Below are positions 52,516 through 63,755 of a stretch of DNA of 64,000 nucleotides, piece by piece. The notes under the pieces are model-generated. The model searched no databases. It had not been told where the DNA came from and saw nothing but the letters and a program-made list of their open reading frames with translations. The position numbers and the translations under genes were made by a program. The stretch's first letter is position 1. Each line of letters starts with the position of its first letter. Source of the stretch: an uncultured Actinomycetota bacterium (GTDB lineage Bacteria > Actinomycetota > Actinomycetes > Actinomycetales > Dermatophilaceae); the NCBI GenBank assembly GCA_963709785.1, contig CAVPXT010000007.1:137613-201612 (forward strand). Reading direction: 5' to 3'.

Positions 52516-53916
52516 GTGGCGCGGACCCGCTGGGCCAGCCCGCTCGACTCGATCTTCCTCATGGGGGAGTCCCCCGAGACCCTGATGCACGTGGGCTCGC
52601 TGCTGCACTTCCGCTACCCCGAGGGCGAGGACGAAGGGTTCCTGCGCGACCTCGTGGCCGACGTGCGGTCCGCCCCGGTCGAGCTGCCGTGGACGCTGCG
52701 ACTGCAGACCCGGCGCGCCATGCGTCAGCCCGTGCACCGCTGGGTCGAGGACGACCGCTTCGACGTCGACTACCACGTCCGGCACTCCGCCCTGCCCGCG
52801 CAGGGCGGCGAGCGCGAGCTCGGCATCCTCGTCTCGCGGCTGCACTCGAACCAGATCGACTTCCGGCGACCCCCGTGGGAGGTGCACTTCATCGAGGGGG
52901 TCGGGCCCGGCCAGTTCGCCGTCTACACGAAGATCCACCACAGCCTCGTCGACGGCTACACGGGCACCCGCATCCTGCAGCGCGGCCTCTCCGAGGACCC
53001 CGACGACCGCACGCACCCGCACTTCTACAGCCTCACCAAGCCGCCGCGGGCCGAGGGCGTGCCGCGCGAGCCGGTGGGCGACGTCGCGTCCATCCTCCGG
53101 AGCGTCTCGGCCTCGGTCACGGCGATGCCGGCGGTGGCGCGCTCCATCCTCGGCACCCAGCTGCGGCGCGGCGAGACCACGACGCGCGCGGTGACCTCGT
53201 ACCAGGCGCCGGTCTCGGTGCTCAACGGGCAGACCGGCCGCTCGCGCCGGTTCGCCACCCAGCAGTACGACCTCGAGCGGCTGCGCGCCGTGGCCCGCGC
53301 GAAGAACGCCACCCTCAACGACGTCCTCATGGCGATCTGCGCCGCCGGGCTCCGCCGTTTCCTCGGCGACCTCGACGAGCTGCCGGACCGCCCGCTCATC
53401 GCCTTCGTCCCGGTCAACGTCCGAGCCGCCGACAGCGAGGGGGGCGGCAACTACGTCGGTGCGACGCTCGTCTCGCTCGCGACCGACATCGCCGACCCGG
53501 TCGCCCGCCTGGCCGCCATCGCCTCGTCGTCGCGCGCCGCCAAGGCCCGGATGCGCGGGATGACCGGCGACGGCGTCATCGCGTACAGCGCGATGCTCCT
53601 GGCGCCCGCCGGGCTCCAGGTCGCCCGGGCGATGACCGGGCTGCCGCTGCCCGGCCCGCTCACCCTCAACGTGTGCATCTCGAACGTGCCCGGGCCGACC
53701 AAGCCCCTGTACTGGCGAGGCGCCCGGCTCGAGGCGACGTACCCGGTGTCGATCCCCGGGCACTCCATGGCACTCAACATCACGGCGCAGTCGTACGCGG
53801 GCACGCTGAACCTCGGCTTCATCGGGGACCGTGAGGCGGTGCCACACCTCCAGCGCCTCGCGGTGCACACCGGGGAGGCCCTCGAGGAGCTCGAGGCCGC
53901 CGTCGGCACCGGCTGA
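52516..53916 (+). CDS. wax ester synthase / diacylglycerol acyltransferase (WS/DGAT)
   Basis: Catalytic HHSLVDG motif. 466 aa with the typical WS/DGAT N- and C-terminal domains. Confidence 0.9.
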   Translation: MARTRWASPLDSIFLMGESPETLMHVGSLLHFRYPEGEDEGFLRDLVADVRSAPVELPWTLRLQTRRAMRQPVHRWVEDDRFDVDYHVRHSALPAQGGERELGILVSRLHSNQIDFRRPPWEVHFIEGVGPGQFAVYTKIHHSLVDGYTGTRILQRGLSEDPDDRTHPHFYSLTKPPRAEGVPREPVGDVASILRSVSASVTAMPAVARSILGTQLRRGETTTRAVTSYQAPVSVLNGQTGRSRRFATQQYDLERLRAVARAKNATLNDVLMAICAAGLRRFLGDLDELPDRPLIAFVPVNVRAADSEGGGNYVGATLVSLATDIADPVARLAAIASSSRAAKARMRGMTGDGVIAYSAMLLAPAGLQVARAMTGLPLPGPLTLNVCISNVPGPTKPLYWRGARLEATYPVSIPGHSMALNITAQSYAGTLNLGFIGDREAVPHLQRLAVHTGEALEELEAAVGTG

Positions 53917-53920
53917 CGGC

Positions 53921-54343
53921 TCAGCCCTGCGGTGGCTCCCCGCTGCCGAGGTTGACCATCCACGAGATGCCGTACCGGTCGACGAGCTGCCCGTACTCGT
54001 CGCCCCACATCTGCTTCTCGAAGGGCATCGTCACGGTGGCGCCGTCGGCCAGCCCCTCCCAGTAGCGGCGGAGCGCCTCGTCGTCGCCGCTCAGCGAGAC
54101 GTGGACGTTGCTCGGAGCACCCGACCCGCCCTCCATCCCGGGCGGGAGGTCCGAGGCCATGAGGACGAAGCCGTCGTCGGTCTCGAGGTAGGCGTGCATC
54201 ACGCCGTCGGCGCCGGGCCCCTCGGCCCCGTACTGGCCGAAGGTCATGACGTCGAGCCGGCCGCCGAGGACCTGCTGGTAGAAGGTCATCGCCTCGCGGG
54301 CGGCGCCGTCGAAGTTGAGGTACGGGTTGAGTCTGCTCGCCAT
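53921..54343 (-). CDS. VOC/glyoxalase-fold protein (PhnB/YjdN-like)
   Basis: ATG at 54343: MASRLNPYLNFDGAAREAMTFYQQVLGG...QMWGDEYGQLVDRYGISWMVN. Confidence 0.8.
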   Translation of the reverse strand: MASRLNPYLNFDGAAREAMTFYQQVLGGRLDVMTFGQYGAEGPGADGVMHAYLETDDGFVLMASDLPPGMEGGSGAPSNVHVSLSGDDEALRRYWEGLADGATVTMPFEKQMWGDEYGQLVDRYGISWMVNLGSGEPPQG

Positions 54344-54408
54344 GATGGGCTCCCTGTTGCCGGTGTCGTCGTCGACCTCGACGACGCTACGCCGCACCAC
54401 CGACACTG

Positions 54409-55218
54409 TCACCGGGGCCGACGCGTCCCTCGGGAGTCCGCGTGCGGGGCCGCGCCCCGCACCGAGTGCCTGCGCCCCGTCCCGGGCCCGGCGACCACCG
54501 CGGCGACCAGGGCGGTGACCTCGGGAGCCGGCGCGACCTCGAGCTCGGACCACAGGACGTCGCGGTAGTGCTCGTAGCGACGGAGCGCCTCGTAGGCGTT
54601 GCCCTCCTCGAGGAGCGCCCGCACCAGGGCGCACAGGGCCGACTGGCGCAGCGGTTCGGCGGTGACCGCAGCCAGCCCGGCCCGGGTGGCGAGACCGAAC
54701 TGGCGGAGCCGGGTCGCACTGCGACACAGCTCCTCCAAGGCCTGGATCCGGGTGAGGTGGAAGGCGTCCTGCTCACCGAGGAGCCATTCCTCGTACCAGC
54801 CGGGGAGGAGGTCCCGCGTGAGCAGGTCCAGCTGGCTGGCGTCCAGGGGAGCGGCGTCGAGCGCGAGGCCCGCGATCCGCCGCGCGTCCACCACGTCCAC
54901 GTCGGCCTCCAGGCGCACCTCCCACGAGCTCGCGGTGACCCACCCCGGCGGGGTCTGCCAGATGGCGCGTCGGAGGTTGGCCCGGGCGCGGGTCTCCAGG
55001 ACCGTCGGCCAGAGCTCCATGCTCATGAGCGAGCGCTGCACCACCGGCCCCCTGACGGCCAGGTAGGCGATCGCACGGCGCGCGGAGGCCGACAGGGGGT
55101 CCTCCGGGACGACCGAGAGCCGCCCGAGGACACACACCTGACGGTGCGAACGCGTACCGGTCACCGGCGGCCCCTCTCGCCGGCCCGTGGTGGGGACGGC
55201 GTCGACGTGGCAAACCAT
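54409..55218 (-). CDS. SARP-family (AfsR/DnrI/RedD-like) transcriptional activator: OmpR-type wHTH + BTAD
   Basis: VCVLGRLSV..., ARRAIAYLAVRG, LLPGWYEEWLLGEQDAFHLTRIQALEELC, ALVRALLEEGNAYEALRRYEHYRDVLWSELEVAP (BTAD). Start is the ATG at 55218 or the GTG at 55164. Confidence 0.75.
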   Translation of the reverse strand: MVCHVDAVPTTGRREGPPVTGTRSHRQVCVLGRLSVVPEDPLSASARRAIAYLAVRGPVVQRSLMSMELWPTVLETRARANLRRAIWQTPPGWVTASSWEVRLEADVDVVDARRIAGLALDAAPLDASQLDLLTRDLLPGWYEEWLLGEQDAFHLTRIQALEELCRSATRLRQFGLATRAGLAAVTAEPLRQSALCALVRALLEEGNAYEALRRYEHYRDVLWSELEVAPAPEVTALVAAVVAGPGTGRRHSVRGAAPHADSRGTRRPR

Positions 55219-55463
55219 TCGGGGACGTCCGGGAAGTATCCCGGACCTCCGGGGGCCCTGCAAACGCGTTGTCCCGGCGGGGACGCCCGGGGGTACACCG
55301 CGACGACGCCGAGGGGACGCGACGGTGCCCGCCCGGGGACCCACGCGGCCACCCGGGACGACGCCCAGGAGGGGCCGCCGAGCACGGGTGCTGCCACGGG
55401 TGCGGCTACGGGGGCCGCGGACGATGGTCGGTGTTCTGCTCACCACGGACCCCGGAGGGACCC

Positions 55464-57962
55464 ATGCCGGACATCCAGTCGACGGCCCTGCTCACCGCCA
55501 TGCCGGAGACGCCCTTCGCCGACCACGACGTGCACGACGCCCACGCCGAGGGCGGCCCGGAGACCATCGGGCTGCTTCCCTGGACGGAGGCGCCCTCACC
55601 GTTCGCCGGCGGGGTCGCCGGGCTCGAGCTCGAGGACGAGCAGACCGAGCTGTTCCTCGAGGCCTTCGAGGAGCTGCGCGACGAGGCCTTCGACGACTCC
55701 CTCGCCGAGCTCGTCGCCGAGACCTCCGAGGCCGCCGGGATCCAGGTGCACGGGGAGCAGCCGGACGCCTTCGGGGCCCAGCGCCAGCGACTGGCCGAGG
55801 CGCACCTCGAACCGGTCGTCACCGAGGCGGAGCGCTGCGTGCAGCGGCTCATCGAGCACGTCGGCCACGTCGACCCCTCGTCGATCTCGGAGGACGAGCT
55901 CGAGAGCCTGCTCGAGCGCTTCGACCCCGGGCAGGCGACGGTGTCCCCGGCGGGCGAGCAGTTCCTCGGCGGCCTGATCAAGAAGGTCAAGGGCGTCGTC
56001 AAGAAGGTCGTCAAGGTCGCGAAGAAGGTCGTCAGCAAGATCCCGTTCCTCGGCGCGATCCTCAAGAAGATCAAGTCCCTCATCAAGCCCTTGCTCAAGC
56101 GCGTCCTCGGGATGGCGATCGGACGCCTCCCCGCCGCCCTGCAGCAGCCGGCGCGCGACCTCGCCAGGAAGATCGGCATCGGCGAGCTCGAGGACGAGTC
56201 CTTCGACGAGCTCGAGGACGAGGCCGAGGAGGAGACCCTCGCCGAGGACTTCGCCGGGTCGCCCGTCCAGGTCCTGGACCCGGAGACCCTCGGGGAGTCC
56301 TTCGACGCCGCGCTCGCGGGTGCCCTGGTCTCCCCCGAGTCGCTCGAGGAGGGCGAGGCCTTCGGCCACGACGAGGGACCGGACCTGCCGATGGGGACCG
56401 AGCTCGAGCAGCTGGCCGCCGCCCGCGGGCGCTTCATGAACCGGGTCCGCGACGCCGGCGACGGGGACGACCTCGGCCCGGCGATGGAGCAGTTCATCCC
56501 GGCGATCCTCCCCGCGCTGCGTCTGGGGCTGCGGCTCATCGGCCGCACCAAGGTCGTCAACTTCCTCGCGAAGTACCTCGCGAAGCTCATCGGCAAGTGG
56601 GTCGGACCCCAGCTCTCGGTCCCGCTGTCTCGGGCCGTGGTCGACGTCGGCCTGCGGGTCATCGGGCTGGAGCACGACGGGACCGGCGAGCTCGAGGCCG
56701 AGGCCGTCCCGGCGATGCTCGCGACGACCGTGGAGGACACCGTCCGGCGGCTCGCTGAACAGCCCGACCACGTCCTCGAGGACGAGGGGCTGCTCCAGGT
56801 CGCCGTGGCCGAGGCCTTCGAGCAGTCCGTGGCTGCGAACTTCCCCGCGACCCTCGTCCGCCCCGACCTGCGGCTGGCGCCCTCCCTCGGCGGGACGTTC
56901 GTCACCCGGCACGCGCGGACGCCGCACGCGTACAAGAAGTTCTCCCGCACCCCCGAGATCGACCTCTCACCGGCGCAGGCCGCCGCCATCCGCACCTTCG
57001 GGGGCGTGACGCTCGACGCCGCGCTCCGCGCCCACGGCATCACCCTCCCCGGACGGTTCCGGGTCCAGGTCTTCGAGGCGGGGTCCGGGACCACGCTGCC
57101 GACCCTCGCCCGCCTCGAGGGCATCGTCGGGCCGAGCGGGACGCACGGTGCCTACAGCCACCTCCACCCCCTGACCCGCGCCAACGCGACCGCCCTGCTG
57201 CGCGAGCCCCGGCTCGGGGTCGACGTGCCCTCCCGCTTCCTCCAGTCCCGGCACAGGATCTCGGTGGGCGAGCGGTTCTTCCACCTCCAGCCCGTCGGGC
57301 AGCGCCCGGCACCCCGACCGGCCCCGACGCGGGAGTCCCCGTCGTGCGACCCCGGGACGCCGAGCGACCGGCGGATGCGCATCGACCTGCGCCGCGGCGA
57401 GGCGCGGATCGCGCTCTACTTCTCGGAGCCGGACGCCCAGAAGGTGGCGGCATCGGTCGGCTCCGACCCGACGAACCCGGCCCTGCTCAAGGCGCTCATG
57501 GAGGCGCTGCGAGCCGCCGGCCGCTCGGTCGGGCGCAGCGACGGGGCGGTGCAGATCCCCGCGGGAGCGCCGGCGGACAGTGCCGCGTCCCCCGGCGGCA
57601 CCGCCGCTCCGCCCACGGGCGGCGACGGCCAGTCCGAGTGGGAGGCCGAGTGGGAGGCCCAGTGGGAGGCGGAGTGGGAGCGCCGCTCCCGGACCCGCCG
57701 GCGGGCACACCACCGCCGCAGCCACCGGGTCTCCCCCGGCCAGCGGGCGAAGCTCCGGCGACGGATCAAGGCGGCGGCCGCCACGGCGCTCTCCGCGTGG
57801 GCACGCACCGGCGGCCAGGAGTTCGTCCGCGCGGCCCAGGACGCCCAGTGCGGGGTCACGGTCCGGATCCGGGTCACGGGCCTCGGCGGCCGGGGCTCGG
57901 GGGGCACCGGGCCCGGTGGCGCGGCCGCCGTCAGCGTGGCTCCGGGCCGGAGCCGGCCGTGA
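55464..57962 (+). CDS. large hypothetical protein (832 aa): acidic N-region, Lys-rich amphipathic core, acidic region, globular C-part, EWEA repeats, Arg-rich tail
   Basis: ATG at 55464 preceded by GGAGGGA. Coding-like codon bias throughout. No family recognised. Confidence 0.7.
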   Translation: MPDIQSTALLTAMPETPFADHDVHDAHAEGGPETIGLLPWTEAPSPFAGGVAGLELEDEQTELFLEAFEELRDEAFDDSLAELVAETSEAAGIQVHGEQPDAFGAQRQRLAEAHLEPVVTEAERCVQRLIEHVGHVDPSSISEDELESLLERFDPGQATVSPAGEQFLGGLIKKVKGVVKKVVKVAKKVVSKIPFLGAILKKIKSLIKPLLKRVLGMAIGRLPAALQQPARDLARKIGIGELEDESFDELEDEAEEETLAEDFAGSPVQVLDPETLGESFDAALAGALVSPESLEEGEAFGHDEGPDLPMGTELEQLAAARGRFMNRVRDAGDGDDLGPAMEQFIPAILPALRLGLRLIGRTKVVNFLAKYLAKLIGKWVGPQLSVPLSRAVVDVGLRVIGLEHDGTGELEAEAVPAMLATTVEDTVRRLAEQPDHVLEDEGLLQVAVAEAFEQSVAANFPATLVRPDLRLAPSLGGTFVTRHARTPHAYKKFSRTPEIDLSPAQAAAIRTFGGVTLDAALRAHGITLPGRFRVQVFEAGSGTTLPTLARLEGIVGPSGTHGAYSHLHPLTRANATALLREPRLGVDVPSRFLQSRHRISVGERFFHLQPVGQRPAPRPAPTRESPSCDPGTPSDRRMRIDLRRGEARIALYFSEPDAQKVAASVGSDPTNPALLKALMEALRAAGRSVGRSDGAVQIPAGAPADSAASPGGTAAPPTGGDGQSEWEAEWEAQWEAEWERRSRTRRRAHHRRSHRVSPGQRAKLRRRIKAAAATALSAWARTGGQEFVRAAQDAQCGVTVRIRVTGLGGRGSGGTGPGGAAAVSVAPGRSRP
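57636..57683 (+). repeat. 4 x 12-bp in-frame tandem repeat GAGTGGGAGGCC (EWEA EWEA QWEA EWER)
   Basis: Read directly from the sequence, inside CDS 55464..57962. Confidence 0.9.
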
Positions 57963-59200
57963 GCACCGCGCTCGTCGACGACCTCGAGCGCCAGGTCCAG
58001 CACTGGCTGGGCTCGGCCCGCGGGTGCCTCGACGCCGAGTCGTTCGCGTCCAAGCCGGCGTGGGAGTCGGTCGAGCACGCCGTCGGGCTCCCGGTGCGGA
58101 CCCAGCTGGCCCGCACCGTCGACGAGCTGATCCGGGTGGGCAGGTCGGCCGAGTCCGCGGTGCGCGCCGCGCGCACGCAGCCGGGCGCGGTCCCGGGGGC
58201 GCAGGCCGCGGTCGAGCGCTTCCGGCGCCGCTACCTCCAGGTCGAGACGACACTCGACTTCTTCGGCCAGGCGGTCAACTCCCGGACGAGCCGGCGGCTC
58301 AGCTCGACGATGACGACCCTGGACCGGCTCGCGCACCAGAGCATCGACGCGTCGCTCGGTCAGGTCGGCATCGTCGTGCCACCGGTGCTCACGTACATCG
58401 GGGAGGGGCTCGGTGCGAGCATCATCCGCGTCGGGATCCGCCTGTGGGCGCCGGGCACGGTCAATCCCGTGGCCGCCATCAAGGTGGTGCGGCACAACCT
58501 GTTCCGTCCGACCTCCCTCTTCCACGAGACCGGGCACCAGGTGGCCCACCTCACCGGGTGGAACGAGGCGCTGCGCGAGACGCTCGGGCGCGAGCTGGCC
58601 GACGACCCCGCGCTGCGCGCGATGTGGCAGCCGTGGAGCAGCGAGATCGCCGCCGACGTCTACGCGTTCGTGCTCACGGGCTACGCCTCGGTGGCGGCCC
58701 TGCACGACGTCGTCGCGGACTCGCGCACCATCCTGCGCTGGCCGCTCGGGGACCCCCACCCCGTCGGCTGGCTGCGCGTCCTGCTCGGGGTCGCGATGTG
58801 CCGGGCGAGCTTCGGCCCCGGCCCCTGGGACCGGCTGGAGGAGGCCGTCGTCGCCGCGAACCCGTTGAGCCGGGCCGAGGAGTCGACCGCGCCGCTGCTG
58901 CGTCGCTCGCACGACCGGATGGACCGGGTCGCCCGGGCCTGCCTCGCCTCGCCCGTCCCCGGTTTCGGGGGGCGCCCGGTGCCCTCGGTCCTGGACCCGC
59001 AGCGGGTCTCACCCCGGGCTCTCGGCGAGCTCGAACGCAGCGCCGGTGCGGCCCTGTGGACCTCGCCGCACTGGCGACAGGCGGAAGGCATCCGCATCGT
59101 CGCCCTCGCCGGCCTCCGTGAGGCCGAGCACCCCGATCGCGCCGGCCAGTGGGTCGAGCGTGCCGAGTCCTGGTTCACCGACACCGCACGCGCGGCGTGA
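57959..59200 (+). CDS. hypothetical protein with HExxH zinc-metallopeptidase-like motif
   Basis: GTG at 57959 overlaps the upstream stop (GTGA). LFHETGHQVAHLTGW at 58523..58537, with downstream SSEIAADVYAF. Confidence 0.7.
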   Translation: MSTALVDDLERQVQHWLGSARGCLDAESFASKPAWESVEHAVGLPVRTQLARTVDELIRVGRSAESAVRAARTQPGAVPGAQAAVERFRRRYLQVETTLDFFGQAVNSRTSRRLSSTMTTLDRLAHQSIDASLGQVGIVVPPVLTYIGEGLGASIIRVGIRLWAPGTVNPVAAIKVVRHNLFRPTSLFHETGHQVAHLTGWNEALRETLGRELADDPALRAMWQPWSSEIAADVYAFVLTGYASVAALHDVVADSRTILRWPLGDPHPVGWLRVLLGVAMCRASFGPGPWDRLEEAVVAANPLSRAEESTAPLLRRSHDRMDRVARACLASPVPGFGGRPVPSVLDPQRVSPRALGELERSAGAALWTSPHWRQAEGIRIVALAGLREAEHPDRAGQWVERAESWFTDTARAA

Positions 59201-59217: not shown

Positions 59218-59649
59218 GTGGCCAACGAGAGACCGACCGTCAGCAGCCTGGACCAGCGGATGGGCGGGGTGGAACAGCAGCTGGGCGGACTCGCCGAGTC
59301 CATCGGCCGCGTCCAGGAGTCCCTCCACGTCCTCAGCGAGGGCAGCACCGCCCAGTCCGACCGGCTGTGGAGTGCCCTCGGCAGCCTCGGAGGGCTCGAC
59401 GGCATCGCCGGCGGTCTGGCCGAGATCGCCGAGGTGCTCGCCCCGATGCGCCAGTTCGCGCCGCCGTCGACGGCGCTGCCCCTCGAGCCGGGAGTCGCCC
59501 GCGCGGTCGGGCGGATCCGCCGATCGCTCGGAGGTGACCGACGCGAGCTGAACTTCCAGAAGCTCGTCACCCGGTGGGACGGGCCGGTGCCCGTCATCGG
59601 ACAGGCCCGACCCCGCCGCCACCGCCACGACACCGACGGAGAGGGATGA
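59218..59649 (+). CDS. hypothetical protein (143 aa), helical/coiled-coil-like
   Basis: GTG at 59218 after GAGAGGAGAG. Sequence begins SLDQRMGGVEQQLGGLAESIGRVQESLHVL. Confidence 0.55.
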   Translation: MANERPTVSSLDQRMGGVEQQLGGLAESIGRVQESLHVLSEGSTAQSDRLWSALGSLGGLDGIAGGLAEIAEVLAPMRQFAPPSTALPLEPGVARAVGRIRRSLGGDRRELNFQKLVTRWDGPVPVIGQARPRRHRHDTDGEG

Positions 59650-59653
59650 GGAC

Positions 59654-60844
59654 ATGATTCCCCAGCTCGTGCAGCAGATCGCCGACCAGATCGGCAGCGG
59701 CGACCCGCTCGCGGACCTCCAGGTCGCCCAGGCCGAGATCCTGACGTCCGACCCGCTCGACCTCGTCCTGCGGGCGGAGCAGGTGTGGAACGACGCCGAC
59801 GTCTGGGACCAGGGCCAGCCGCCGGCCGGTCCCGCGCGGACGGCCCTCATCGACACCAACGCCTTCGCGACCGGTGAGTGGACCACCCCGCCGAACCCGC
59901 CGCTGCCCATCCCGACCGGCCCGCAACCCGCCTGGGACCACCTGGTCTACGCGTACGCCATCGAGAACACCCGCGCACCGCAGATCCTCGCCCGCGTCGT
60001 GCGCGCCTTCCGCAGCGGCGAGGGGCTCGGGGTCCCCTCGGTCGCGACACAGCGCTGGCTCGACGCGACCGAGGCGCTGCTCTTCGGTGCCACGAACCCG
60101 TTCGCGGCGTGGCTCTCGACGAGCGGCGTGCGCCCGGACGCCGAGGCGGTCCGCCGCAACGCGTACTTCCGCCTCTTCGGGATGGACCTCGCGCACGGGA
60201 CCGACGGCAACGCGCCCTACCCCTACGACAAGGCCGAGGCGTCCAACCGTGGGTTCGTCAAGGTCTTCGAGGAGCTCCTCTTCGAGCTGTGGCGGGCGAT
60301 CGAGAACGTGCGGAACCTCGTCGCGGGCAACACGACCGACGACGACCGCATCTACCGCCTCGCCGAGCAGCTGGGCTTCATGCTGCGGTCCCGCCGCCTC
60401 CAGGCGATCCTCGGTCGCGAGGAGCTCGCCGCGACGACGGCGATGGGGTGGGTGGAGCTCACCGTCAGCTCCAACACGTCCGTCGTGACGGACCTGCGCG
60501 CCGAGGCCACGAGCGCGGCTGACCGGCTGCGGGTCATCGGTGAACGCGTCCGGCTGATGCCGCACTCACGGGCCGGGTCGTTCTTCTCCATGGCGACCGA
60601 GCTGTCCCTCCTGCTGCGGGCCCTCGAGGCCGGCTGGGTGACGGGGAACGGCCAGGCGTGGCTGCTGTACCAGACGACCGCCCCGGGCGGAACGCCTCCG
60701 CTGCCGCCCGGCCAGCGCCCGCTGGGCGCCGAGGTGCGGCGCATCATCACCGAGTGGGCCGCCGCCTCGGGCCGTGACCTCAAGCAGCGGGCCGTGCCCA
60801 TCACGGTCGTCCCCGGCGCGCTGGCCGCCCCGGCCACGCGGTGA
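59654..60844 (+). CDS. hypothetical protein (396 aa)
   Basis: ATG 4 nt after the preceding stop. Coding-like composition. No recognised domain. Confidence 0.7.
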   Translation: MIPQLVQQIADQIGSGDPLADLQVAQAEILTSDPLDLVLRAEQVWNDADVWDQGQPPAGPARTALIDTNAFATGEWTTPPNPPLPIPTGPQPAWDHLVYAYAIENTRAPQILARVVRAFRSGEGLGVPSVATQRWLDATEALLFGATNPFAAWLSTSGVRPDAEAVRRNAYFRLFGMDLAHGTDGNAPYPYDKAEASNRGFVKVFEELLFELWRAIENVRNLVAGNTTDDDRIYRLAEQLGFMLRSRRLQAILGREELAATTAMGWVELTVSSNTSVVTDLRAEATSAADRLRVIGERVRLMPHSRAGSFFSMATELSLLLRALEAGWVTGNGQAWLLYQTTAPGGTPPLPPGQRPLGAEVRRIITEWAAASGRDLKQRAVPITVVPGALAAPATR

Positions 60845-60856
60845 GCGGGGTGCGCG

Positions 60857-61801
60857 ATGACGGACCTCGAGACGCCGTGGGCCACCCCTGACGGGGTCCC
60901 GGGCGAGGCGGAGTGGATCGGTGAGGACCCGTTCACGCAGGGCGGGGCGGGCTTCACCGAGGAGTCGTGGGCCGACGCGCCGACAGTGGAGCGGCCCGCC
61001 GGAGAGCGGTGGCAGGAGTCCCCCTTCGAGACCCCCGTGGAGGGGTTCCTCGAGGAAGGCACCGGGCAGTGGGAGTCGTTCGCGGACAACGCCGTCGGGG
61101 TCACGACCGAGGCCGAGAGCGTCCCCGGCTGTGGGGGACCCGTCAGCGGAGCCCCGCCGCTCATCTACCGCACCTCGTGGGCGGCCCGGTCCCGCACCCC
61201 GTGGGTCGGGCGGGCCCAGACGTTGCTCAACGTCTTCCTCGCCCAGCAGCGGGCCGGCACCGAGAGCTGCACCGACCAGAGCGCCGCGACACGGGCCTAC
61301 ATCGCCTCGCTGCGCGCCCGGCTGGCGCCGCTCGGGCAGGATCCCCTCGGTGTCGACTGCATCTTCGGGGAGGGCACCGAAGTGGCCACCCTGATGTTCC
61401 AGGCCTGCCGCGGCCTGCTGCGCGACGGCAAGATCGGCGAGAAGACCTGGCCCCCGCTGCTCGCCCTCGGCACGACGCCGGTCCCCACGCCCGCCCCGAC
61501 CCCCACGCCCCGACCCCGGCCCCGTCCGGTGTCCGGGTGCGCGAGGACGTCTGGACGCTCAGTGCCGCGAACCCCTGGCACCCGACGATCCTCTGGTACG
61601 CGCGGGGCGTCGCAGCGCTCCAGGCACGAGATGGCCGGAACGCCGCCGACCCGCGGTCCTGGCGGCACCTGGCAGACACGCACGGCACATCGAAACGTCG
61701 CAACACCTGGCCCTCTGGTGCCCTGTGGAACCAGTGCGAGCACGAGAGCTGGCACTTCCTCCCGTGGCACCGCGGCTACCTGCACCACTTCGAGAAGCTG
61801 A
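60857..61801 (+). CDS. acidic N-region + peptidoglycan-binding (PG_binding_1) domain + Pro/Thr linker. The reading frame probably should continue into the tyrosinase (frame break near 61510)
   Basis: LGVDCIFGEGTEVATLMFQACRGLLRDGKIGEKTWPPL matches the PGBD repeat pattern. After TPVPTPAPTPTP the frame degenerates to an Arg/Ser/Gly-rich tail overlapping the tyrosinase frame. Confidence 0.6.
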   Translation: MTDLETPWATPDGVPGEAEWIGEDPFTQGGAGFTEESWADAPTVERPAGERWQESPFETPVEGFLEEGTGQWESFADNAVGVTTEAESVPGCGGPVSGAPPLIYRTSWAARSRTPWVGRAQTLLNVFLAQQRAGTESCTDQSAATRAYIASLRARLAPLGQDPLGVDCIFGEGTEVATLMFQACRGLLRDGKIGEKTWPPLLALGTTPVPTPAPTPTPRPRPRPVSGCARTSGRSVPRTPGTRRSSGTRGASQRSRHEMAGTPPTRGPGGTWQTRTAHRNVATPGPLVPCGTSASTRAGTSSRGTAATCTTSRS

Positions 61802-62991
61802 TCCGGGCCGAGATCACCCGCCTCGGCGGACCGGGGGACTGGGCGCTGCCCTTCTGGAACTACAGCGACACCAGCCGGCCCGACGTCCTGACCATCCCCC
61901 CGGCCTTCCGCCAGCGACGAACGCCCGACGGGCAGCCCAACCCCCTGCACGTGGCGCGGCGGGCCCGAGGCATCAACGATGGTGCGCCGATGTCCACCCT
62001 CGCCGTCCGGACCAGCACGATGTTCGGCGAACCGGCCTTCACCCCTCCGGCCGGTCTCGGCGGTGGGTTCGGTGGGGTCCGCGCACCGCTCGGCACGCAC
62101 GGGAACGGCCGTGGTGCCGACCGTGGCAGCCTCGAGAACGCCCCCCACGGCCTGGTCCACGGTCAGGTGGGCGGGTCGGGAGTCACACCGGGACTGATGT
62201 CGAGGTTCGAGACCGCGGCCCAGGACCCGATCTTCTGGCTCCACCACGCCAATGTCGACCGCCTGTGGGAGGCGTGGCTGCGCACCGCGAGTCACCGGAA
62301 CCCCACCGAGACGGGGTGGCTGGACGGGCACTGGACGTTCGGTTCGGGGCCCGCGGTCACGACCACGACGGTCTCGACACGCCAGATGATCGACCCCCGG
62401 CAGCAGCCGCTGGGGTATCGCTACTCGGACATGGCGTCCACACCGACTCCCGAAGCCGAGTGGTTCGCGGAGGTCGATGCGGGAGCACCGCATCTCGAAC
62501 AGCTCCCACCCGAGCTCGTCGGGACGTCGGAGGGCGAGATCTCCCTCGGGCCGCGCGTGATCACGACCCGGGTCGCGCTCCGTCGTCCGGTAGGGCCGGT
62601 CGCGCATCGGCTCGACGAGTCGACCGGGGTCCCGACGGGCTCCACGGTCTTCCTCCGCCTCGAGAACGTCACCGCGACGGTGGTCCACAGCAGTGGTGTC
62701 GTGGTCTACCTCAACATCCCTCGCGGTGGTCGCCCGGCGGACTTCCCGGACCGCGAGGCCGGTGTCCTCAGCCTCTTCGGGGTCATCGAGGCCTCGCAGC
62801 GCACCGACCAGCACGACGGGACCGGCAGCACGATGACCATGAACGTCACCCGCGTGGCGCGGGCACTGGCCGCCTCGGGGCAGTGGGACCCGACCACGGT
62901 CGATGTCACCTTCGTGCCCATCCCGGATGCCGCAGGCGTGGTCGAGCAGGGCGACGTGAAGGTCGGCCGGGTCAGCGTGTTCTACGCATGA
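61537..62991 (+). CDS. tyrosinase / polyphenol oxidase (type-3 copper) with C-terminal beta-rich domain
   Basis: CuA HESWHFLPWHRGYLHHFE. CuB HGLVHGQVGG...DPIFWLHHANVDRLW. GTG at 61537 is the first in-frame start. The same frame upstream reads PTPAPSG, continuing the linker of 60857. Confidence 0.8.
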   Translation: MREDVWTLSAANPWHPTILWYARGVAALQARDGRNAADPRSWRHLADTHGTSKRRNTWPSGALWNQCEHESWHFLPWHRGYLHHFEKLIRAEITRLGGPGDWALPFWNYSDTSRPDVLTIPPAFRQRRTPDGQPNPLHVARRARGINDGAPMSTLAVRTSTMFGEPAFTPPAGLGGGFGGVRAPLGTHGNGRGADRGSLENAPHGLVHGQVGGSGVTPGLMSRFETAAQDPIFWLHHANVDRLWEAWLRTASHRNPTETGWLDGHWTFGSGPAVTTTTVSTRQMIDPRQQPLGYRYSDMASTPTPEAEWFAEVDAGAPHLEQLPPELVGTSEGEISLGPRVITTRVALRRPVGPVAHRLDESTGVPTGSTVFLRLENVTATVVHSSGVVVYLNIPRGGRPADFPDREAGVLSLFGVIEASQRTDQHDGTGSTMTMNVTRVARALAASGQWDPTTVDVTFVPIPDAAGVVEQGDVKVGRVSVFYA

Positions 62992-63755
62992 CCCTCGCCC
63001 CGACGACCACAGCGCCCGCATCGCTGGTCCGGGTGCACTGGCACCACCCCGAGTGGGTGGTGGTGGCGGTGGCAGCGGGCGCGTGGCTCGGGCTCCTCGC
63101 CCCGGTCGCGGCGGACCCCACCGTGCTCCTGCGGGGGTCGCACCACCTCGGGATCGGCGGCGCGCTCGGGCCTGCCGCCGTGATGGCCGCCGCGATGATG
63201 GCACCGCTCGTGCTCGCCCCGGCCCACGAGCTCGCGGTGTCCAGCCTGTGGCAGCGCCGCTACCTGGCGGTGGTCGTCCACCTCACCGGGTACCTCGCCG
63301 TCTGGACCCTCGTCGGCCTGGTGATGATGACCGGGCTGCACCTCGCACGGGGATGGGTCGGGACCCTTCCCACCGTCGCGGCCGCGGGCGCGGCGGCCGT
63401 CGTGGTGGCGGGGACGGAGGACCACCGGCGCCGGCTCCGGCGCTGCGGCGCGTCGCGTCCGCTGTCCCTCACCGGGTGGCGGGCCGACCGGGACTGCCTC
63501 GACGCTGGGGTACGGCTGGCTGGGCGGTGCGTGGCGACGACGTGGGCGCTGATGCTCGCGCTGATGGCGCAGGGCGGTCTCGTCGTGCTCGCCAGCGGCA
63601 CGGTGCTGATGGTCGCCGAGCGCCGCGGCCTCGTCCCCGACCGACGGCTCGTCCGCTGGACCGTGGCGCTCACCGTGCTCGCCCTCCTCGTGACCGCCGG
63701 CAGCGTCGGCTCGGGGTCGCTCGACGGAGCACCCGTGGACCCCCACGCCCACTGA
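62988..63755 (+). CDS. DUF2182-type predicted metal-binding integral membrane protein
   Basis: ATGA overlap with the tyrosinase stop. Multi-TM with conserved His/Cys/Met (HWHHPEW, MMAP, RRCG, DCL). Confidence 0.7.
   Translation: MTLAPTTTAPASLVRVHWHHPEWVVVAVAAGAWLGLLAPVAADPTVLLRGSHHLGIGGALGPAAVMAAAMMAPLVLAPAHELAVSSLWQRRYLAVVVHLTGYLAVWTLVGLVMMTGLHLARGWVGTLPTVAAAGAAAVVVAGTEDHRRRLRRCGASRPLSLTGWRADRDCLDAGVRLAGRCVATTWALMLALMAQGGLVVLASGTVLMVAERRGLVPDRRLVRWTVALTVLALLVTAGSVGSGSLDGAPVDPHAH

Follow-up and report, generated by a model that had tools for sequence, protein, structure and literature searches.

Several described systems are relevant to the locus reported here. In holin–endolysin cassettes and type 10 secretion systems, a murein hydrolase without an export signal lies beside a protein with membrane-active features, together with a regulator of their own, and the hydrolase needs its partner to reach murein; holins are small proteins with one to four transmembrane segments. 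In bacterial gasdermin–protease operons, a protease gene adjoins the gene of a protein whose membrane-active element is masked, and activation follows the loss of an inhibitory part, a short C-terminal peptide. Polymorphic toxins of the colicin and pyocin type combine a conserved N-terminal tag with shuffled C-terminal enzyme domains, are spread sporadically by horizontal transfer and have a disordered N-terminus with short linear motifs. Leaderless bacteriocins such as aureocin A53 and lacticin Q are Lys-rich, amphipathic helical peptides of about 50 amino acids (aa) without acidic residues, encoded by free-standing genes of 47–53 aa and served by dedicated transporters, and in defensin and dermaseptin precursors an acidic region stands beside a cationic amphipathic one, for which charge neutralisation has been proposed. 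Our study concerned a stretch of 64 000 nucleotides (nt) from an uncultured Actinomycetota bacterium of the Dermatophilaceae (assembly GCA_963709785.1, contig CAVPXT010000007.1, positions 137 613 to 201 612), referred to below as the window. It holds a gene for an 832-aa protein with a Lys-rich segment, termed gene A here, which is the first of a row of five genes (A to E) found again in many other genomes. A pair of basic helices makes up this segment, which is the hallmark of a new family of ~800-aa proteins.

A preliminary description of this DNA, made from the letters alone, had singled out residues 167–220 of the 832-aa open reading frame (ORF) as Lys-rich and free of acidic residues, and translation returned the stretch as quoted. 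The strong enrichment stood, although the count of 13 Lys had to be amended, as 14 of the 25 Lys of the protein fall within residues 173–212 and R213 comes next. Over the 66 aa from residue 166 to residue 231 there are 14 Lys, 3 Arg and no Asp or Glu. The whole protein has 25 Lys against 70 Arg, the G+C content of the window is ~74 %, and Lys makes up 0.4–0.8 % of the products of the five genes neighbouring A. The hypergeometric probability of at least 14 of 25 Lys falling in one 40-aa window was 9e-14 (~8e-11 when corrected for all windows), and 20 000 shuffled versions of the protein never had more than 9 Lys in such a window, against the 14 observed. Hydrophobic moments, calculated for 18-aa windows at 100 degrees on the Fauchere–Pliska scale, were the highest in the protein at residues 167–184 (0.65) and 195–212 (0.70), with a low beta-type moment, and AlphaFold2 modelled helices here; the amphipathic helix that had been proposed was thereby borne out. 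The acidic flanks were also real, with net charges of −23 (residues 54–160) and −22 (residues 237–300) in a protein of net charge −21. The downstream acidic string that had been quoted does adjoin the segment, whereas the upstream string lies about 90 residues upstream of it. The start of the gene is marked by a GGAGG ribosome-binding site 6 nt 5′ of the ATG, and the homolog alignments begin at the same Met.

The segment was found to be a constant property of the family. Homologs of A are full length, constant in size at ~800 aa and all annotated as hypothetical; 371 matches in 90 % clusters were counted among 8000 candidates scored, and the family comprises at least 671 clusters at 50 % identity (E ≤0.001) from many phyla. 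The segment was present in all 96 members of an alignment that reached down to 28 % identity and covered many bacterial phyla and Methanosarcina, so that no aligned homolog lacked it, and its consensus reads SP.FE.FLG.L.KKAK..VK..V..AKKG...(loop)...L.KLK.LVRPLL.RVL.FAI.KLP..LRP.A..LA. Conservation extended to the uncharged positions, with F167, P209, V214, A218, P223 and A230 retained at 90–100 %. The net charge of the segment ranged from +10 to +31 (mean +17) across these 96 homologs, every one of which also had an acidic region upstream (−12 to −28) and downstream (−6 to −22), averaging about −20 and −12, respectively. Lys accounted for a fraction of 0.66 of all Lys and Arg inside the segment and 0.27 elsewhere. 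The mean maximum hydrophobic moment was 0.61 for helix 1 and 0.60 for helix 2, and the maximum for the entire protein lay inside the segment in 62 of the 96 sequences. Many residues are also invariant in the C-terminal half of A, for example H568-P-L-T and R596/R598/R604. When 5.8 billion proteins were searched with a profile of just this segment, the only matches were nine short A-family fragments with seemingly out-of-frame tails; none was a free-standing peptide gene, although the word filter of the search could miss others.

The AlphaFold2 model of A, based on the 96-sequence alignment, had a predicted template modelling score (pTM) of 0.82 and a mean predicted local distance difference test score (pLDDT) of 79. 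Residues 1–53 were disordered, residues 54–236 all helical and residues 240–269 a disordered acidic linker, beyond which another helical region was followed by an alpha/beta C-terminal half. The basic helices at residues 162–188 and 195–219 were modelled at pLDDT 81–94 inside the folded all-helical domain. This fold could not be linked to a described one: Foldseek searches of the model against PDB and BFVD gave best E values of 0.19–0.25 at a template modelling score of ~0.1, with long helical membrane transporters on top, so the segment could not be assigned as the buried core helix of a known fold, and the gasdermin fold was absent among the PDB matches (best E 0.25, score ~0.1). None of A, B, C or D had a significant match in Pfam (E up to 10), NCBIfam, PADLOC or PHROGs, and no match to PDB sequence profiles was found for A, B or D. 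Weak library matches to HemX, ZorG and a tape-measure protein (E 0.002–0.02) were set aside as noise or composition effects, and the match of the A family profile to aureocin A53 (E=0.52) was not significant and was taken as compositional. A mean-field coevolution analysis of helix contacts (305 sequences, effective number ~210) was discarded, since its top pairs were indel-edge artefacts. The window protein also carries a clade-specific insertion at 57630–57734 (residues 723–757), SEWEAEWEAQWEAEWERR followed by RSRTRRRAHHRRSHR, which forms a second acidic-then-basic charge block, is predicted to be disordered and occurs in the closest relatives only.

Gene A does not stand alone. Across 66 genomes, and in metagenome contigs as well, the recurrent order was a SARP/BTAD regulator in either orientation followed by A, B, C, D and E, with products of ~415–450 aa for B, ~90–240 aa for C and ~360–400 aa for D, and a large and variable E. 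The coordinates of these genes and of the parts of A in the window are collected in Table 1. A ends and B begins within the letters GTGA (57959–57962), where the TGA stop of the one and the GTG start of the other overlap, an arrangement that suggests translational coupling, and the other gaps in the operon measure 4–17 nt. The product of C is probably a coiled-coil protein. No signal peptide or transmembrane segment was detected in any of A to E, and no transporter gene lies within the operon. At 55383–55430, 35–80 nt 5′ of the A start, a 12-nt unit with a (C/T)ACGG core is repeated in tandem (CACGGGTGCTGC CACGGGTGCGGC TACGGGGGCCGC). Next comes GGACGATGGTCGG, partly kept in close relatives, and the whole is a candidate SARP binding site and promoter.

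Table 1. Positions of gene A, its parts and the neighbouring operon genes in the window
Feature	Position	Strand	Remarks
Gene A	55464..57962	+	832 aa; first gene of the conserved operon; holds the Lys-rich segment
Acidic disordered N-terminal tag of A	55464..55622	+	ETPF at 55506–55517, SPF at 55596–55604; pLDDT <50
Acidic helices, N-terminal domain of A	55623..55943	+	residues 54–160; net charge −23
Basic amphipathic helix 1	55947..56027	+	residues 162–188; AlphaFold2 pLDDT 87–94; moment 0.65, family mean 0.61
Basic amphipathic helix 2	56046..56120	+	residues 195–219; AlphaFold2 pLDDT 81–93; moment 0.70; P209, V214 and A218 nearly invariant
Short basic helix 3	56133..56171	+	residues 224–236; low-confidence prediction; follows invariant P223
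Acidic region after the basic segment	56172..56363	+	residues 237–300; net charge −22; residues 240–269 disordered
Further Lys-bearing amphipathic helix, TKVVNFLAKYLAKLIGKWV	56547..56603	+	residues 362–380; moment 0.65; pLDDT 87–89; conserved hydrophobic/basic block
Gene B	57959..59200	+	413 aa, zincin-like; HETGH at 58523–58537, EIAAD at 58643–58657, DPHP at 58751–58762
Gene C	59218..59649	+	~143 aa; poorly conserved; shared core G[LF]..[IL]...L.PLR.L.P
Gene D	59654..60844	+	396 aa; conserved; family without known relatives
Gene E	60857..62991	+	acidic tag, PG_binding_1, tyrosinase, DUF7868; split by a frameshift near 61490–61530
SARP-type (BTAD) regulator	54409..55218	-	adjoins the operon; start uncertain, ATG at 55218 fits homolog lengths

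The gene after A had been noted for its HExxH motif, and this observation gained in weight, as HETGH is indeed present and B is the constant partner of A. It followed A in 60 of the 69 loci with an A match, the remaining loci being too short for the gene after A to be seen, and is the most conserved gene of the operon, at 41–63 % identity across phyla. The motifs HExxH (residues 189–193, HETGH), ExxxD (residues 229–233, EIAAD) and DPHP were conserved in at least 95 % of 66 B sequences from many phyla, and ExxxD is the third-ligand motif of gluzincin type. The AlphaFold2 model of B (pTM 0.87) had two strands immediately ahead of the HExxH helix and ExxxD in a later helix, a predicted layout that is compatible with a minimal zincin core. 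One UniRef entry names a B homolog 'IrrE N-terminal-like'. B is probably a metal-dependent hydrolase.

At the other end of the operon, E was found to be polymorphic. Among 27 loci, its domains were VanY (11), PG_binding_1 (9), DUF2272 (6), Peptidase_M15_3 (6) and PG_binding_3 (5), with Glucosaminidase (4) and Aspzincin_M35 (4) less common and single cases of SLT, of hemopexin with a beta-lactamase-like domain and of a PhoD-like domain. From these domains E would usually be a murein hydrolase or murein binder without an export signal. In the clade of the window it combines PG_binding_1, tyrosinase and DUF7868, and a gene for a PpoB2-family membrane copper chaperone (62994–63755, Pfam E 1e-14) lies directly after this tyrosinase-type E, which suggests that the tyrosinase is or was copper-loaded and functional. 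E is a single ORF of ~700 aa in close relatives (loci L003, L005, L006, L008 and L010). In the window it occupies two reading frames, with the switch inside a (Thr-Pro)n linker encoded by a repetitive ACGCC/CCGAC tract, and in Phycicoccus sp. HDW14 (L004) it likewise forms two ORFs. The split could reflect a sequencing error, a pseudogene or slippage-based switching.

A and E share a feature at their N-termini, which in all phyla are acidic and disordered: the motif [DE][STA]P[FY] is present there once, twice or three times, for example as ESPFAE, ETPFLE or DAPFAE. The motif occurred within the first 110 aa in 79 of 96 A and 18 of 27 E sequences and nowhere else in ~68 000 residues of A; it was found in none of 66 B and in one of 63 D sequences. 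The copies in the window are ETPF and SPF in A and ETPW, EDPF and ESPF in E (60857–61060). As judged from its distribution, the motif is a candidate targeting or recognition tag, and its presence in both A and E would mark the two proteins as clients of one partner, which is probably B, C or D.

The operon is widely and unevenly distributed. Its hosts include Actinomycetota, Alpha-, Beta- and Gammaproteobacteria (Bradyrhizobium, Rhizobium, Cupriavidus and Lysobacter among them), Myxococcota (Labilithrix), a cyanobacterium, Bacteroidota (Aquimarina), Acidobacteriota, Gemmatimonadota and Methanosarcina, and because the flanking genes vary between genomes the cassette is a mobile unit. The genes 3′ of E differed among the few loci inspected (PpoB2, Gamma_PGA_hydro and transposases). 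A phage origin was considered and rejected, as a tblastn search with B gave no match in 50 697 phage records and A had no relative in IMG/VR contigs. No domain of type 5, 6 or 7 secretion (T5, T6, T7), Rhs or contractile injection systems was found in A to D or in the flanking genes. Upstream of the operon (52516–54727) are a gene for a wax-ester synthase/DGAT (52516–53916) and a glyoxalase-like gene on the minus strand, both outside the conserved neighbourhood; a functional tie to the wax-ester synthase through lipid droplets was dropped, since that gene is not in the conserved neighbourhood of other genomes.

The archaeal locus is informative as to the target of E. Methanosarcina sp. MSH10X1 has the full A-B-C-D-E row (L065, 9833–18274) on a 253-kb contig, in an island of 47–54 % G+C between flanks of ~40 %, and no BTAD regulator was detected beside the operon. 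Its E combines DUF2272, PG_binding_1 and an SLT lytic transglycosylase. As this archaeon has no murein, this E can act on bacteria only, that is, on the walls of other cells, which favours an antibacterial role of the operon over pure self-lysis. The same argument has been made for archaeal peptidoglycan (murein) hydrolases in a study (PMC12352652) that reports known signal peptides in only 32 % of the archaeal homologs and leaves open how the others are delivered. E could also be released through the lysis of some producer cells.

A variant cassette was recognized on Ensifer adhaerens megaplasmid NZ_CP118611 (L072, 6663–13076), with similar ones on the megaplasmids of Rhizobium sp. CCGE531/532. 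In order, it encodes a 225-aa 'mini-A' and its paralog, a B homolog, proteins of 724 and 405 aa without a Pfam match, and a protein with PG_binding_1 and a GIY-YIG nuclease domain. The B homolog aligned to B with an hhalign probability of 99.7 % (E 3e-26) and keeps HETGHQ, SEI.AD and DPHP. Mini-A has an 'EASPF' tag, acidic repeats and a helix, EQFLGDFIKKAVSVV ('EQFLGDFIKKA'), and a glycine-zipper-like G-x3-G stretch was read by eye from its translation; such a zipper would fit a membrane-inserting protein. The local match of mini-A to the start of the Lys-rich segment spanned 23 columns (E 7e-4, probability 26 %), and this is a lead for a relation between the two and not proof of one. If the match is true, the basic helix and the B-type enzyme form a conserved functional pair.

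Our preferred interpretation of the helix pair, held tentatively and with somewhat less than even confidence, is that of a charge-masked element that binds or permeabilizes membranes and helps the signal-less E to reach murein, possibly after being unmasked by B. In its favour are the charge pattern and amphipathy kept throughout the family, the confident model of the helices, the synteny of the operon across phyla, the murein domains of E, the lack of export signals in A to E, the tag on both A and E, the invariant motifs of B, the Methanosarcina locus and the variant cassette with mini-A. In resting A, the Lys faces of what would be a latent membrane-active element would be neutralized by the acidic helices and the acidic linker. 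Once unmasked, through the action of B on the acidic part or the tag of A or through membrane contact itself, the helix pair would engage an anionic membrane and so allow E access to its substrate. This membrane could belong to a target bacterium or to the producer itself, in which case it would be approached from the cytoplasm. For the operon as a whole, we regard it as possible, though rather doubtful, that A to D are the core of an unrecognized system for the delivery or regulated release of polymorphic wall-attacking effectors, with A and E as its clients through the tag and the Lys helices breaching the membrane. Horizontal transfer would have carried such a system through nine phyla or more and into Methanosarcina, in which attack on bacteria would be its only use.

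A number of observations weigh against a latent membrane element. AlphaFold2 places the helices within a folded domain, from which they may never be released, and A has no hydrophobic transmembrane stretch (Kyte–Doolittle maximum over 19 aa, 1.37; no window reaches 1.6). A few homologs have almost only Arg in the segment, for example 1 Lys and 14 Arg, and because Arg replaces Lys in these proteins, Lys itself is not essential. The membrane role of the helices, their packing on the acidic helices and the cleavage of A by B are all putative. B itself gave no match to any peptidase, either by Foldseek against PDB, where the best E was 0.2, or in Pfam and among PDB sequences. Furthermore, no consistent immunity gene was seen after E, in loci that were not systematically surveyed for one.

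Other explanations of the helix pair were weighed. It may be that the opposite charges form a permanent salt-bridged bundle, an electrostatic zipper that does nothing but hold the N-terminal domain together, and that A has its function in another part, such as the C-terminal alpha/beta region. The high pLDDT and pTM of the region are in keeping with such a bundle, as are the conserved uncharged helix positions, the opposite charges kept on adjacent helices in 96 of 96 homologs and the many invariant residues of the C-terminal half. However, a charge of +17 over ~72 residues, with Lys kept in genomes of 74 % G+C whose other proteins have <1 % Lys, exceeds what a bundle needs; the Val/Ile/Leu-rich face and a moment of 0.6–0.7 resemble membrane-active helices; and mini-A retains the helix without the rest of A. 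We consider a purely structural role unlikely on these grounds, albeit the strongest of the alternatives. The helices could instead serve as a static peripheral anchor, the alternative raised in the preliminary description, and hold an A-B-C-D complex of the cytoplasm at the inner leaflet of the producer's membrane without permeabilizing it. Cationic amphipathic helices are the usual device for peripheral membrane targeting, as in MinD and FtsA, and since A has no export signal its helices would meet the anionic inner leaflet first. Known targeting helices are 10–15 aa long, though, in contrast to the two of ~25 aa seen here, AlphaFold2 packs the helices into the fold rather than leaving a free terminal helix, and an anchor would leave the membrane crossing of E unexplained, which together make this role quite improbable.

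A Lys face of such extreme and conserved positive charge, in which Lys and Arg are interchangeable in some homologs, could also bind polyanions, whether teichoic acids, lipopolysaccharide, nucleic acid or the acidic tags of A and E, which would be natural ligands. Such binding would have no use for the conserved hydrophobic face, and A is overall acidic (net −21) with no nucleic-acid- or wall-binding domain detected in it, so that we assign this explanation a low probability, at or below that of an anchor. Lastly, the preliminary description had likened the segment and its flanks to an antimicrobial-peptide precursor. From a classical precursor of this kind, or of a bacteriocin, B would excise a cationic peptide of ~50–70 aa between anionic pro-regions for release against competitors. 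The cationic amphipathic core with acidic regions on both sides and the conserved HExxH protein encoded next door have the look of such a precursor, and the non-significant profile match to aureocin A53 points weakly the same way. The comparison did not hold up against the rest of the data: A has no export signal and the operon no transporter, the protein is of constant ~800-aa size with 600 further conserved residues, and the segment is conserved at its uncharged positions rather than diversifying, is structurally integrated as modelled and gave no free-standing homologs in the profile search. An excised peptide is accordingly the explanation we find hardest to credit, and very improbable. 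A latent, charge-masked membrane element remains the interpretation we favour for the helix pair.

If that interpretation and the proposed delivery system are correct, bacteria and some archaea would have a new way of bringing signal-less wall-degrading enzymes to their substrate, built from four protein families without known relatives or folds, and antibacterial weaponry or programmed lysis would gain a new class. A possible delivery route would open up for some of the signal-less archaeal murein hydrolases. Further gains would be a new latent membrane-active module and a short targeting tag with which other cargo might be loaded. Should the membrane role prove wrong, there is still a large, conserved and unannotated operon, on which future work could start from the SARP regulator, the HExxH motif, the tag or the Lys face. 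A, B, C, D and the operon are new, being described in no library, structure database or paper searched, and no description of the cassette was found in the literature on DUF7868, SARP regulators, tyrosinase, peptidoglycan hydrolases or operons.

In summary, the operon shares features with each of the described systems and coincides with none of them. As in holin–endolysin cassettes and type 10 secretion, a signal-less murein hydrolase that would need a partner to reach murein is encoded beside a protein with membrane-active features and a dedicated regulator. However, A is an 832-aa protein with no transmembrane segment, unlike a holin, and the operon adds B, C and D, is absent from the phage and IMG/VR sets searched and is present in an archaeon without murein. 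The resemblance to gasdermin–protease operons lies in a putative protease gene adjoining that of a protein with a proposed masked membrane-active element, for which activation by loss of an inhibitory part is likewise proposed. Here the inhibitory part would be an acidic domain instead of a short C-terminal peptide, no gasdermin fold was found for A by Foldseek, a polymorphic murein hydrolase is added and cleavage is a proposal. E, with its conserved N-terminal tag and the enzyme domains shuffled behind it in 27 loci, its sporadic horizontal spread and its disordered N-terminus with short linear motifs, is built much as polymorphic toxins and colicins are; yet no known trafficking domain or secretion system accompanies it, A to D match no family, and no immunity gene was seen in the few loci looked at, which do not amount to a systematic survey. 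The segment has the Lys content, amphipathicity, length and freedom from acidic residues of a leaderless bacteriocin, but is an internal and conserved part of A rather than the product of a free-standing gene with its own transporter. With defensin and dermaseptin precursors it has in common the acidic region beside a cationic amphipathic one and the idea of charge neutralization, whereas the signal peptide, short length, hypervariable mature peptide and defined processing sites of those precursors are all missing from A. The operon, with its putative mechanism, is rated here as a new kind of system, since no transmembrane helix of the holin type and no gasdermin fold were found in A and the operon is without the trafficking module that characterizes polymorphic toxins.

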